Shown: piece by piece, positions 20,516-55,552 of the stretch
Position numbering within the stretch: position 1 is the stretch's first letter
Layout of the letters: the number at the start of each line of letters is the position of its first letter
Assembly: GCF_044704955.1 (NCBI RefSeq)
Contig: NC_091995.1
Coordinates: forward strand, 14,012,001-14,076,000
Length of the DNA: 64,000 nucleotides
DNA from: Pristiophorus japonicus
Lineage: Eukaryota
Direction of reading: 5' to 3'
Notes under the pieces: model-generated
The model's input: only the letters and a program-made list of their open reading frames with translations
Databases searched by the model: none
Told to the model about the DNA's origin: nothing
Program-made: the position numbers and the translations under genes

Positions 20516-20531
20516 GGCTCTGAAAAGAGCC
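20516..20531 (-). terminator. Histone mRNA 3' stem-loop (H2B variant 1)
   Basis: GGCTCTTTTCAGAGCC preceded by AAAAA, 35 nt after the stop codon. Confidence 0.95.
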
Positions 20532-20566
20532 TTTTTCGGGTTAAATGTTCCACTGACCAGGAAGCT

Positions 20567-20947
20567 TTATTTGCAGCTGGTGTATTTGGTGACCGCTTTC
20601 GTCCCCTCGGAGACGGCGTGCTTGGCCAGCTCCCCCGGGAGCAGCAGGCGGACAGCGGTCTGAATCTCCCGGGAGGAGATGGTGTGCCGCCGGCTGTAGT
20701 GGATCAGGCGGGAGGCCTCGCAGGCGATGCGCTCGAAGATGTCGTTGACGAACGAGTTCATGACACTCATGGCCTTGGAGGAGATGCTGGTGTCGGGGTG
20801 AACCTGCTTCAGCACCTTGTAGATGTAGATGCTGTAGCTCTGCTTCCTGGACTTCCTGCGCTTCTTCTCGCCTTTGACCCGTTGTTTGGAGACCACTTTC
20901 TTTGGCCCCTTTTTAGGCGCTATGCCCTTTGACACTGGCTCAGGCAT
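20567..20947 (-). CDS. H2B: Histone H2B variant 1 (126 aa)
   Basis: Intronless, intact histone fold ([10 protein letters not shown]...[23 protein letters not shown]), stem-loop and octamer promoter. Confidence 0.96.
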
Positions 20948-20996
20948 GGTACACGGGCGGGAAGTTTTGTTTGGGAGAAAGTCTGCTCGACGCGCG

Positions 20997-21110
20997 ATTT
21001 AATAACCCGTCGTATGCAAATGAGGAATCGGAAACTCACGCATTCCTATTGGTGGACCGGCGCGGTCTCCATTGTGATTTGGATACAATGCGTGATAATT
21101 GGCCAATCAG
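20997..21110 (-). promoter_or_regulatory. H2B promoter: TATA-like, H2B octamer box, CCAAT boxes
   Basis: Minus strand reads CCTCATTTGCATAC (octamer 21014-21021) upstream of TTATTAAAT; CCAAT boxes at about 21048 and 21100. Confidence 0.8.
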
Positions 21111-21204
21111 GATCGCGAACGGTATTGTTGCAGTTTCCAAGTCTTCAGGCAAACTCCGAGAATGCGGAAGTTAAACTGCTTTGATTGTGGGACAACATCA
21201 CCTT

Positions 21205-22762
21205 CAATGGGGTAGCACTGTCTCGCCTCTGATTCAGAAGGTTGTGGGTTCAAGTCCCACTCCAGAGACTTATACGGCACAGCAACGGGCCATTCGGCCC
21301 AACTAGTCTATGCCAGCGTTTATGCTCCACTCGAGCCTCCTCCCGTTTTTCCTCATCTAAATTTAGCAAAAATATCTGGGCTGGCACTCCCAGGGCAGTG
21401 CTGAGGGAACAGTGCACTGTCAGAGATGCCGTCTTTCGGACGAGATGTCAAACCGAGGCCCTGTCCGCTCTCAGGTGGATGTAAAATATCCCATGGGACT
21501 ATTTCATAAGAACATAAATAGGAGCAGGAATAGGCCATTCGGCCCTTCGAGCCTGCACTGCCATTCAATATGATCATGGCTGATCATGCAACTTCAGTAC
21601 CCCACTCCATACCCCCTGATCCCCTTAGATGTAAGGGCCACATCTAACTCCCTCTTAAATATATCCAACGAACTGGACTCAACAACTTTCTGTGGTAGAG
21701 AATTCCACAAGTTCATCACTCTGGGTGAAAAAGCTTCTCCTCATCTCGGTCCTATATGGCTTACCTCTTATCTTTTAGATTGTGACCCCTGGTTCTGAAC
21801 TTCCCCCAACATCGGGAACATTCTTCCTGCATCTAACCTGTCCAGTCCCGTCATCATTTTATATGTTTCTATGAGAACCCCTCTCATTCTTCTAAATTCC
21901 AGTGAATATAAGCCTAGCTGATCTAGTCTTTCTTTCTTATGTCAGTCCTGCTATCCTGGGAATTAGTCTGGTGAACCTTCACTGCGCTCCCTCAATAGCA
22001 AGCACATCCTTCCTCAGATTAGAAGACCAAAACTGCAGGCAATACTCAAGGTGTGGTCTCACCAAGGCCCTGTACAACTGCAGTAAGACCTCCCTGCTCC
22101 TATACACAAATCCTCTCGCTATGAAGGCCAACATGCCATTTGCCTTCTTTGCCGCCTGCTGCACCTGCATGCCTACCTTCAGTGACTGATGCACCATGAC
22201 ACCCAGGTCTCGTTGCACCTCCCCTTTTACTAATCTGCCATTCAAATAATAATCTGCCTTCGTGTTTTTGCCACCAAAGTGGATAACCTCATATTTATCC
22301 ACATTATACTGCATCTGCCATGTATTTGCCCACTCACCTAACCTGTACAAGTCACCTTACAGCCTCTTAGCATCCTCCTCACAGCTCACACCACCACCCA
22401 GCTTAGCGTCATCTGCAAACTTGGAGATATTACATTCAATTCAATTTAATCCGATCATGGCTGACCCGATCATGGACTCGGGTCCACTTCCCTGCCTGCT
22501 CCCCATAACCCCTTATTCCCTTTTGAAGAGCAGGGGATTTCTCCATGGTGTCCTGGCCATTATTTATCCCTCAATCAACATCACAAATATAAATAATATC
22601 TGATCATTATCACATTGCTGTTTGTGGGAGCTTGGCCGTGCACAAATTGGCTGTTGCGTTTCCTACATTTGAAGTGACACTTTAGAAGGTACTTCATTGG
22701 CTGTGAAGCGCTTTGGAATGTCCTGTGATCGTGAAAGGCACTGTATAAATGCAAGTTCTTTA
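21205..22762. mobile_element. Deu-SINE (+) split by CR1 fragments (-, about 21505-22520)
   Basis: SINE head and core at 21205-21506 resume at about 22520; RT ORF 21979-22350 lies between them. Confidence 0.75.
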
Positions 22763-23202
22763 AATTTCAGTAACGGTGCATACTGGAGAAAGGAATCCCA
22801 GAGGGTTGCAGCTGACAAAGGGAAAAATATATTGTAATAGTATAGTTGCATCCCTGGTCAGTGCTTGTGACGTTTTATTACATTAAAGAGGCTATATAAA
22901 TGCGCTATATATGCTCGAGGAACAGCATCTTTTTTGATTAGGCAGTTCCTTCTGGACTCAACAAAGTTAAATAATGTCAGACCACTGCCATTTTTTCTGG
23001 CGGCTGCTGTTGGTGATTCTGCCATTCCCAGTTGCACATTTCTGGTTCAGGACAAGGATACAGAATGACCACTAAAAACAAACTCCATTATCTGGGTCCA
23101 TTCCTACTATACCCCAACGTCTCCCTCCATATCAAACCCAAGAATAAACACGAATTTGTATATATGCAACAATCTGTAAGCTCTTCTGCTGATTGAATGG
23201 GT

Positions 23203-23218
23203 GGCTCTTAAAAGAGCC
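23203..23218 (-). terminator. Histone 3' stem-loop (H4) with downstream element
   Basis: GGCTCTTTTAAGAGCC-ACCCA followed by AGAAGAGCT. Confidence 0.95.
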
Positions 23219-23254
23219 TTTTTGGGTTTCAGGTCTTAATTGTATTAATATTTT

Positions 23255-23566
23255 TCAACCACCAAATCCATAGAGTGTCCGCCCCTGGCGTTTCAGAGCG
23301 TACACCACGTCCAGAGCGGTGACCGTCCTGCGTTTGGCGTGTTCCGTGTATGTAACCGAGTCCCTGATGATGTTCTCCAAAAAAACCTTCAGTACTCCTC
23401 GGGTTTCCTCGTAAATGAGGCCGGAGATGCGCTTGACGCCACCTCGGCGAGCTAAACGGCGAATAGCCGGCTTGGTAATGCCTTGAATATTGTCACGAAG
23501 GACTTTGCGGTGTCGCTTGGCTCCTCCTTTCCCTAGCCCTTTGCCCCCTTTTCCTCTACCAGTCAT
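23255..23566 (-). CDS. H4: Histone H4 variant (103 aa; S1T, V65I, A69S, K79R, M84L)
   Basis: ATG at 23566, full-length H4 sequence, intact stem-loop and promoter. Confidence 0.97.
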
Positions 23567-53975: not shown

Positions 53976-54010
53976 ACGGCCCAGCAGCGACCGAGCGTCT
54001 CAACACAAAA

Positions 54011-54026
54011 GGCTCTTTTCAGAGCC
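54011..54026 (+). terminator. Histone 3' stem-loop (H1-derived D)
   Basis: CAAAA-GGCTCTTTTCAGAGCC-ACTCA followed by AAGGAGCTG. Confidence 0.95.
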
Positions 54027-54344
54027 ACTCACATTTCCGCTATAAGGAGCTGAATCACTTCGCTGGAAAATCCCACTTTCTGTGCAATGATGCGGAGCGA
54101 ATGCGCGGCACAATTTAAATCTCACCAAATGTACATTTTATTGCAGACAAATAGTATTACTACATCCAGCTGACCAAAATAAACACGAGCGAAGCAAATG
54201 CATCAATAATATAAATAGTGCCTGCTGAGTGTCCAACCTTTTCTGTTTGTATTTTAGATTTCCAGCATCCGCAGTATTTTGGCCATTTGAAGCAAAATGA
54301 ATCAATATCTTGGCGTTTTATTTGGTGCGGATTCACACTCCATT

Positions 54345-54925
54345 ATCAGGCAGATTGAGAACGTTTCATGAAATTAAATGAAATATCACTAAATATTCTT
54401 AATTGAATAATCTGCACCTTTCTAATATTTTTAGAAATAATGGAAAATACGTTTATTGATTTTTAAAGAAAATATTTACTAAATATACTTAATTGAATAC
54501 TCTGCATCTATTTTTAAGAATGTAACACTGAAATTAAATTAAATATTTACTAAATATACATAATTTTTATAGTTTGAGAAATAATGGAACACAAGATAAC
54601 TTTACTGAAATGAAATAAATTAAATAGTTAATTGAATAATCTTTACTTATTTTTATATTTTTGTTAATAGAATACAGGACGTTTACTTAAAAGAAATATT
54701 TACTAAATATAGTTAATTGGAAATCTGCATTTATTTTTATATTTTTGTTAATACAATACAGGACAGCGTTTACTGGAATTAAATATTTACTAAATATTCT
54801 TAATCAGCACCTAATTTTTCATATTTTTTGAAATCATGGAATACAGGAAAACGTTTACTGAGATTAAATTAAATATTTACTAAATAATTGAATAACCTTC
54901 ACCTAATTTTTATATTTTTGGATAT
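54345..54925. repeat. Degenerate AT-rich tandem repeat (unit roughly 70-100 bp)
   Basis: AAATATTTACTAAATA...TAATTGAATA...CGTTTACT recurs about 6-7 times. Confidence 0.7.
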
Positions 54926-54949
54926 AAAATAGAAGAAGCGGTAAATCTC

Positions 54950-55056
54950 AGCCCCAATCTGCCGCTGCACAGAATCAATCCTCTTATAGGTCCAATACTA
55001 ACAGCTCGCTAAGCCAATCAGAAAGCGGATTTACGATTCCCTGAAATACTATAAAA
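54950..55056 (+). promoter_or_regulatory. H2A promoter: three CCAAT boxes and TATA
   Basis: CCAAT at 54954, 54992 and 55014; TATAAAA at 55050. Confidence 0.75.
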
Positions 55057-55121
55057 GCAGGAGCCGCGGCGCTTGGCAGATCATTTTCTTGCTGCGGGTT
55101 CAGAAAATCTAATTCGAAGCT

Positions 55122-55511
55122 ATGTCGGGCCGCGGTAAAACTGGAGGCAAAGGGCGCGCCAAGTCCAAGACCCGCTCCTCCCGAGCCGGCCTGCAGTTCC
55201 CGGTCGGCCGCATCCACCGCCTGCTGCGCAAGGGTCACTACGCCGAGCGGGTGGGGGCCGGAGCCCCGGTCTACNNNNNNNNNNNNNNNNNNNNNNNNNN
55301 NNNNNNNNNNNNNNNNNNNNNNNNNNNNNNNNNNNNNNNNNNNNNNNNNNNNNNNNNNNNNNNNNNNNNNNNNNNNNNNNNNNNNNNNNNNNNNNNNNNN
55401 NNNNNNNNNNNNNNNNNNNNNNNNNNNNNNGCCCAGGGCGGGGTCCTGCCCAACATCCAGGCCGTGCTGCTGCCCAAGAAAACCGGACACGCCAGCAAGG
55501 TTTATACCTGA
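55122..55511 (+). CDS. H2A: Histone H2A (129 aa; 52 central codons are N)
   Basis: [51 protein letters not shown]...[18 protein letters not shown]; stem-loop. Confidence 0.93.
55275..55430. other. 156-nt N run
   Basis: Length equals the 52 codons missing from a canonical H2A (L51-I102). Confidence 0.95.
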
Positions 55512-55536
55512 AGACTACAATCAATTGAACCACAAA

Positions 55537-55552
55537 GGCTCTTTTAAGAGCC
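55537..55552 (+). terminator. Histone 3' stem-loop (H2A)
   Basis: CAAA-GGCTCTTTTAAGAGCC-ACCAC followed by AAAGAAC. Confidence 0.95.

Follow-up and report, generated by a model that had tools for sequence, protein, structure and literature searches.

Divergent Stem-Loop Histone Genes in the Major Histocompatibility Complex Region of Sharks and Rays, with a Possible Role in Male Germ-Cell Chromatin

Introduction

Vertebrate variant histones are known mostly from mammals, and variants of H4 are rare. A short stretch of the 5.9 Gb genome of the shark Pristiophorus japonicus raises the question of what chromatin a group of eight divergent histone genes might serve. The stretch, here called the window, comprises 64,000 nucleotides (C19:14012001-14076000, NC_091995.1; coordinates are those of the window unless given in Mb) and holds two genes for H2B, one each for H4 and H2A, and four for H1. 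A first-pass annotation took them for a lineage-specific set of variants for spermatogenic or other specialized chromatin. As we discuss below, they belong to a larger cluster in the major histocompatibility complex (MHC) class III block that is common to sharks and rays, and a role in the male germline is the reading that we somewhat favor.

A Variant Histone Cluster in the MHC Class III Block

All eight genes are recovered where they had been annotated, by translation and a scan for stem-loops, and all eight are intronless. Each is followed by a 16-base stem-loop, 25-65 bases 3' of the stop codon. The stem-loop pattern was counted eight times in the window, whereas 200 first-order resamples of the same sequence gave 0.045 on average and never more than 1. 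Only four of the eight stem-loops reach the Rfam Histone3 gathering score. The genes are indeed scattered among repeats: 73% of a 614 kb region around the window is self-matching, and reverse transcriptase (RT) or RT-zinc domains were found in 4 of 13 scanned window open reading frames (ORFs).

A tBLASTn search of the same 614 kb found 23 full-length histone frames at C19:13.72-14.15 Mb, a cluster of 430 kb in which all five histone classes are present. A left group has 10 frames and a right group 13, of which 8 are in the window. Exons of VARS (valyl-tRNA synthetase) and a SAPCD gene lie between the two groups, with LSM2 to the left and VWA7 to the right. Because of these neighbors the cluster is assigned to the class III block of the MHC; matches to MHC class I are found elsewhere on this contig, at 40-57 Mb. 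The canonical histone genes are not here: of 150 H1 and H4 matches that were scored, most belong to arrays on contigs C9 and C2056, organized as quintets. The window proteins, divergent and dispersed, do not belong to those near-invariant tandem H2B-H2A-H3-H4-H1 units, and the cluster is a separate one, unlike the major histone cluster in which mammalian testis variants sit. The reported lack of H3 is correct for the window but not for the cluster, whose left group has an H3 (Q125H) at C19:13.740 Mb. A divergent H2A/H2B pair is missing from the entire cluster, but this is uninformative, since the H2A and H2B of canonical quintets share a strand too (4 of the 4 quintet loci that show both near full length).

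Conservation of the Cluster in Sharks and Rays

The gene order matches that of sawfish and white shark, as given in gene tables, and that of Heptranchias, as given by accession order. In Heptranchias, H1 types C, A, B, D, and B (XP_067829851-855) are on one contig, and the first four (851-854) have the order of the P. japonicus left group. Sawfish chromosome 34 has smx5, eight histones, vars1, a SAPCD gene and then further histones: H4 (-), H2B (+, 411 bases), an uncharacterized gene (+), two H2A (+) and two H1 (-), according to the part of the supplement available (PMC10751288). The 411-base plus-strand H2B has the position of the second H2B of the window. On white shark chromosome 19 the same tables place 12 small unnamed genes before vars1 and 10 after it (PMC10751288). 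Their sizes and strands match, in order, the ten intact genes of the left group and ten of the 13 of the right group, which is how their identities are inferred.

The accessible tables differ for bony fishes. In reedfish vwa7, vars1, and sapcd1 are adjacent with no genes listed between them, and in lungfish no histone-sized gene is listed from VWA7 to LSM2 (PMC10751288). Since sawfish and white shark share the order and these two fishes have no histones listed there, the cluster at the VARS site is common to sharks and rays and is absent from the tables of both bony fishes. The main text of that study, in its available part, makes no mention of histones (PMC10751288).

The set is not specific to the species: it is common to elasmobranchs, and one member of the same H1 clade is from a chimaera. 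Four database rows that match P. japonicus's own paralogues (P0002, P0014, P0024, and P0091) were left out whenever species were counted; the type D alignment still contains P0002 and P0014. The search with type D gave 14 proteins: the window's own, two P. japonicus paralogues, and 11 rows from eight other sharks and rays. The type C search gave 56 proteins, of which 15 rows are type C, from seven sharks and four rays. The type B search gave seven, namely the window's own and six rows from four sharks, with none from rays; a fifth shark was found separately. Type A is represented by three rows from two other sharks, met within the searches for the other types. In a genome search, type D genes are confined to the cluster, as are those of type C (3 copies).

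The four window H1s each fall in a starred group with other species in a careful tree of 41 rows and 83 columns (A, 96/91; B, 100/99; C, 99/96; D, 96/89). Types A, C, and D share one starred clade (97/96) with type E of the left group and a Callorhinchus protein; a quick tree of 83 rows agrees. Type B is separate, and canonical shark H1, teleost protamine-like proteins and bony-vertebrate H1 are outside the clade. We considered the cluster H1s as orthologues of bony-vertebrate somatic H1, but this was not supported, as the A/C/D/E clade excludes those H1s and the deeper forks of the tree are open. The cluster H1s group with replication-type H1, away from two P. japonicus H1.0-like genes. These two (C19:74.39 and 74.49 Mb), which served as outgroup, have no stem-loop within 110 bases after the stop; another intron-bearing H1 also lies outside the cluster. 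Type E (C19:13.7197-13.7204 Mb) has a long branch and may be decaying: its frame runs through its own stem-loop and stops 3-5 bases behind it.

Linker Histones

H1 type A (ORF 37632-38285, plus strand, 217 aa; stem-loop 38343-38358, gene with stem-loop to 38358) has an intact globular domain and an acidic C-terminal end. Type B (ORF 47373-47870, plus, 165 aa; stem-loop 47915-47930, to 47930) has a short wing and a short tail. Type C (ORF 49543-50442, minus, 299 aa; stem-loop 49462-49477, 49462..50442 in all) has a net charge of +68 and a predicted intact winged helix; a TC-rich microsatellite (50674-51530) lies directly upstream of it. Type D (ORF 53355-53975, plus, 206 aa; stem-loop 54011-54026, to 54026) keeps helices 1-2 and the conserved KKKAAYR motif, followed by an eroded helix 3 and wing, an acidic patch and a basic tail. 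The starts of types B (47373) and D (53355) were set downstream of a TATA-like box and agree with those of the orthologues.

The shift from Lys to Arg that the first-pass annotation invoked is clear in these proteins. Arg/(Lys+Arg) is 0.36-0.63 in the window H1s (0.63 in A, 0.54 in B, and 0.62 in C) vs 0.10-0.11 in two canonical shark H1s. The orthologue groups keep it, with means of 0.40-0.57 vs 0.10 for canonical shark H1 and 0.27 for teleost protamine-like proteins. The high GC content at third codon positions in these genes (0.8-0.9) may contribute to the shift. Lys and Arg make up 21-27% of residues in the window H1s. Sites of the cyclin-dependent kinase (CDK) type number 0-2 in the window H1s vs 4-5 in canonical shark H1s, and the orthologues are also poor in them.

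Types A, B, and C are called as linker histones by Pfam (PF00538 above cut-off), and type D has no Pfam match. Bulky hydrophobic residues fill 100% of the core positions of helix 3 and the wing in A, B, and C, but only 23% (helix 3) and 37% (wing) in D. In the type D family, 17 columns are invariant in 14 rows, 3 of the 14 rows have a weak Pfam match, and the acidic patch is strong in sharks and weaker in rays. The family profile matches solved H1 globular domains with an E-value of 4e-10, and descent of type D from H1 is supported. AlphaFold, given 14 rows for each type, predicts one helix for type D (predicted local distance difference test score ~55) and a winged helix for type C (80-90) that matches solved H1 domains. 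When the type D profile was run against 1.84 billion representatives, eight proteins had E <=1e-30, all of them in the alignment already; of the next ten hits, seven carry a species name, all elasmobranch and one of them a P. japonicus paralogue, and none is named as mammalian. The ESM Atlas returned generic H1 and protamine-like clusters only. A C-terminal GRP[RK] motif is present in 12 of 15 type C rows and is degraded in the window copy. An AT-hook in type C was considered and set aside: none of 14 rows has a Pfam AT-hook match.

Core Histones

Alignment with vertebrate H2B shows that changes in the window H2Bs fall at sites of the mammalian testis variant TSH2B. H2B a (ORF 20567-20947, minus strand, 126 aa; stem-loop 20516-20531, 20516..20947 in all) aligns without gaps to vertebrate H2B and has G53S, G60S, G75C, A81I, N84S, K85R, and S87H (human numbering) and a Cys near the C-terminus. 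H2B b (ORF 34931-35341, plus, 136 aa; stem-loop 35383-35398, to 35398) has a long N-terminal tail of Ser, Thr, and Ala, and G75C, A81I, and N84T. Of the sites at which TSH2B differs, Gly75 among them, Asn84 to Ser alone alters the human testis nucleosome, through loss of a water-mediated bond to H4 Arg78, as reported in the accessible text (PMC3976059). A second, more divergent H2B type, 69% identical to canonical, is at C19:13.782 Mb (G75S, R79H; ratio of nonsynonymous to synonymous substitution rates, dN/dS, 0.17).

The window H4 (ORF 23255-23566, minus; stem-loop 23203-23218, 23203..23566 in all) has S1T, V65I, A69S, K79R, and M84L. The change at K79 adjoins Arg78, and A69S is present in all three cluster H4s. 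The variant H2A (ORF 55122-55511, plus, 129 codons; stem-loop 55537-55552, to 55552) reads N in its middle, where the frame is not checkable, and is judged from its two ends only. These match two other cluster H2As, whose core is H2A.X-like and whose short tail ends in GHASKVYT and has no SQ motif.

Selection and Turnover

Are these genes functional, or remnants of canonical arrays? Pairwise dN/dS values (Nei-Gojobori) were obtained within P. japonicus, against canonical genes or between paralogues. The window H4 differs from canonical H4 at 5 amino acids with dN 0.025 and a dS of ~2, which is near saturation (dN/dS 0.01). Against canonical shark H2B, dN/dS is 0.14 for H2B a and 0.19 for H2B b (0.11 in the core), and the cluster H3 has 0.01. 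The H1s have higher values: 0.38 (p 0.003) and 0.54 (p 0.1) for type D paralogues, 0.71 (p 0.02) and 0.77 (p 0.11) for type C, and 0.56 (p 0.003, poor alignment) for B vs B2. The core variants are thus strongly constrained, and the H1s weakly so, with fast tails.

Decay of copies from the canonical arrays would fit the broken members of the cluster, an H2B with two stops at 13.637 Mb and a frameshifted type B at 13.798 Mb, as well as a probable H1 remnant in the window (33174-33526). An H4 with only 5 changes at a dS near 2, H2B ratios of 0.11-0.19, and the intact orthologues and kept order in other species oppose it; we hold it to be very improbable, and it is largely refuted for the seven fully visible genes. 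The earlier view of the genes as functional variants and not recent pseudogenes is upheld by orthologues, synteny and purifying selection on H4, H2B, and H1-D, and they are almost certainly functional, conserved variants.

The presence of broken copies indicates that the cluster turns over by birth and death. This would also be expected if the genes were minor somatic subtypes of the replication-dependent kind, comparable to the dispersed HIST1 genes of mammals, expressed at a low level in all dividing cells with their tails drifting. Between paralogues, selection on A and C is weak or without signal, which suits such subtypes, as do the stem-loops and the S-phase promoter elements of the core genes. 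Drift alone would hardly give a consistent Lys-to-Arg shift, subject to the codon-position caveat above, nor would it be expected to keep type-specific motifs, the eroded type D domain among them, in sharks and rays alike. We consider this explanation unlikely.

Promoters and Transcription

Canonical H1 genes have the motif AAACACA, which we take to be the H1 box, ~67 bases before the TATA box (5 of 5); at that place it is found in 0 of 12 variant H1 genes. The proximal GTCC/GG element is kept in 11 of the 12. Core-gene promoters keep motifs that we take to be the octamer, CCAAT, and the H4 box; H2B a has octamer and CCAAT, and the window H4 has H4 box and octamer. The purine-rich downstream element for U7, scored without a chance control, has best matches of 6-8 of 10 positions vs 7-9 in canonical genes. 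H2B b has an AATAAA 37 bases behind its stem-loop.

Loss of the H1 box and Arg-shifted tails are also compatible with terminal differentiation. Variants for condensed somatic cells such as nucleated erythrocytes or lymphoid cells, comparable to H5, might account for them, and the position of the cluster among immune-region genes is in keeping with this. The H1s have, however, kept their stem-loops and group with replication-type H1 and not with the two H1.0-like genes, and the H2B changes fall on testis-H2B sites. We regard such a somatic specialization as rather improbable.

A processed H2B copy on contig C13 is flanked by 15-base direct repeats; its match to the left-group H2B begins 26 bases ahead of the start codon and ends 26 bases past the stop. 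For a processed H4 copy on C3, the match to the left-group H4 has a similar, transcript-only extent. These retrocopies imply that the parent genes were transcribed in germ cells or the early embryo. They fit expression in the oocyte or early embryo equally well, and a maternal histone set, for oocyte storage or cleavage-stage chromatin, has to be weighed. The cluster has the full set of five histone classes, and among mammalian variants H2B.1 occurs in both ovary and testis, with H2B.K and H2B.N mainly in oocytes (PMC8857922, available part). Against it, Arg-rich proteins derived from H1 are the protamine-like class of sperm (PMC11607694, in the text available), and the H1.0-like genes without stem-loops and the intron-bearing H1 lie outside the cluster. 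A maternal role seems an unlikely explanation.

Contigs from one sequencing run of unrecorded kind correspond to parts of H1-A, -B, and -C at 0-1 differences, and two end immediately ahead of a stem-loop; three non-coding bins are without cover. These observations are not counted as evidence. The accessible text of a catshark atlas refers to a histone gene cluster on chromosome 13, which may or may not be the same cluster (PMC11979771).

A Possible Role in the Male Germline

The window genes are part of an old elasmobranch cluster in MHC class III, and we judge it somewhat better than an even chance that its products rebuild male germ-cell chromatin before protamines take over. A scan of short Arg-rich ATG frames for protamine genes (the 614 kb plus 20 further loci) gave repeats and alternative frames only. 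The male germline is favored by the Arg shift, the loss of both CDK sites and the H1 box, the changes at TSH2B sites, the H1 without a predicted globular domain, and the retrocopies.

The following sequence of events is envisaged. The mRNAs would end at the stem-loop through U7/SLBP processing, and the H1 genes, since they lack the upstream H1 box, are probably switched on by a program other than that of bulk S-phase. Variant H2B, H4, and H2A would then form a looser nucleosome, because H4 Arg78 loses its water-bridged contact when H2B Asn84 is replaced by Ser or Thr, and the changes in H4 are adjacent. H1-A, -B, and -C would bind through their intact winged helix, and their Arg-rich tails with few CDK sites would compact the DNA. 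H1-D, predicted to have no folded globular domain, would act as a disordered transition-type protein that contacts DNA through its basic tail and histones through its acidic patch.

Several observations weigh against a germline role, or against parts of this scheme. Arg enrichment is not specific to sperm, as avian erythrocyte H5 illustrates. Replication-type 3' ends and promoters with octamer, CCAAT, and H4 box fit dividing cells. G60S is also found in ordinary Xenopus and chicken H2B. The trees (80-83 columns, no approximately unbiased test) give no link of the cluster H1s to teleost protamine-like proteins or to mammalian H1t, so that the TSH2B-like sites are at best convergent. The retrocopies derive from paralogues outside the window and show expression but not specificity, and a genome search found no retrocopy of H1-C. 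Type A paralogues have a dN/dS of 1.46 (p 0.31), and the globular-domain ratios of C, D, and B, all below 1, are individually not significant. The prediction that type D does not fold comes from a shallow alignment, and H4, H2B, and H2A of other species are known by matching gene size and strand only, not by sequence.

A bolder form of the germline reading is possible, and we offer it as tentative. The cluster might be a chondrichthyan germline chromatin kit, evolved independently of those of mammals and teleosts, with a variant nucleosome (TSH2B-like H2B, H2A.X-like H2A without SQ, variant H4 and H3) and at least six H1 types, ranging from intact and Arg-rich to lacking the winged helix. It would then be a living series from H1 to protamine-like proteins, kept in MHC class III since before sharks and rays split.

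Other Features of the Region

To the left of the window histones is a SAPCD gene, likely SAPCD1, represented by its first coding exon (902..1384, minus strand; Pfam SAPC2_N, E 5e-20). Of two matches in the genome, that on C20 is stronger than this one, whose downstream Suppressor_APC exons are at 13.93-13.95 Mb. Two separate Suppressor_APC exons lie behind one SAPC2_N exon at C19:13.917-14.013 Mb, either an internal repeat or a partial SAPCD duplicate; white shark has two minus-strand genes listed at the SAPCD position. Tandem arrays occupy 3-903, 2310-2858, and 4318-4698 (periods 46, 45, and 45).

The first-pass list of stem-loops was incomplete. A ninth, at 33511-33526, ends a single-copy GC-rich stretch (33174..33526, plus) that has no long ATG frame. 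A purine-rich downstream element lies behind the stem-loop, and the likeness to an H1 tail is weak and of low complexity; the stretch is most likely a decayed H1 variant. Just upstream, 33003-33140 has three near-copies of a 30-45 base unit with TTTGAA and CCAAT/ATTGG-like words, which we presume to resemble cell-cycle promoter elements.

A short frame at C19:14.101 Mb, inside the right histone group, has no Pfam match above cut-off; we take it to be similar to a TMEM143 exon. A satellite group at C19:18.567-18.60 Mb has an H3 (Q125H), an H2B with G75C and N84S, and a broken H3, and adjoins a C-type lectin exon; in sawfish the same H3-H2B-H3 trio adjoins a mannose-receptor-like gene. At C19:58-63 Mb, next to the MHC class I matches, are canonical-type histone genes, many with stops or frameshifts, that form a decaying array. 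A small quintet group at C9:115.3-115.4 Mb has H4 S1T, H3 V89I, and a long divergent H1. At C3:316.6-319.3 Mb, nine near-identical single-frame matches cover the whole MHC class I alpha1-alpha2 profile, vs exon-split matches on C19.

Comparison with Known Systems

We found no paper on a chondrichthyan histone variant cluster in a search that did not reach the full text of most subscription work, older shark sperm-protein papers included. A term search of the available text of a study of histone gene organization in >250 species gave no shark, skate, cartilaginous, Chondrichthyes, Callorhinchus, or MHC (PMC13525598). In the literature found, an elasmobranch-wide cluster of stem-loop histone variants with its own H1 radiation is not previously described. 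The genes may have been overlooked because non-polyadenylated mRNAs are under-sampled by poly(A) RNA-seq.

A conserved set of H4, H2A, H2B, H3, and several H1s in the sister group of bony vertebrates would be an independent case of specialized chromatin built from stem-loop genes. The shark testis is zonal, so that each H1 type could be assigned to a stage of spermatogenesis, which would be a direct test of the hypothesis that H1 gave rise to protamine-like proteins. Type D may be a natural, long-kept experiment on H1 function without a globular domain. Should the genes prove somatic, they would still be an undescribed, lineage-wide family of subtypes.

The testis variants of mammalian HIST1 (H2B.1/TSH2B, H2A.1/TH2A, and H1t) are likewise stem-loop genes without introns, dispersed in a cluster on the chromosome that bears the MHC. 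In humans, histone genes are found in extended class I (PMC12619710, accessible part), and the mammalian testis variants are described as mammalian in origin in the available text of PMC8857922. Unlike them, the shark genes are in class III (LSM2-VWA7), lie away from the canonical arrays, and include no divergently oriented H2A/H2B pair. H2B.1 is changed at Asn84 and Gly75 as are the shark H2Bs, with Ser84 in H2B a and Thr in H2B b. The H2A.1 chain ranks high among the matches to the cluster H2A, whose core has H2A.X as its best natural PDB match (His38, Gly99); the cluster tail (SKVYT at its end) is without the SQ motif.

The shark H1s do not group with the H1t row. With proteins of the PL-I type and teleost protamine-like proteins they share the winged helix and tails rich in Lys and Arg, and their Arg fraction is as high or higher (0.36-0.63 vs 0.23-0.31). 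They differ in having fewer S/T-P-x-K/R sites (0-2 vs 6-7) and in forming a separate clade in both trees. Mammalian HILS1 (H1.9) and H1T2 (H1.7) are spermatid H1-like proteins with a poorly conserved globular domain, encoded by genes that are not known to have a stem-loop. Type D resembles them in that its globular domain, too, is poorly conserved. The shark and ray models already annotated automatically in RefSeq as 'histone H1-like,' without subtype names, are orthologues of the cluster H1s.

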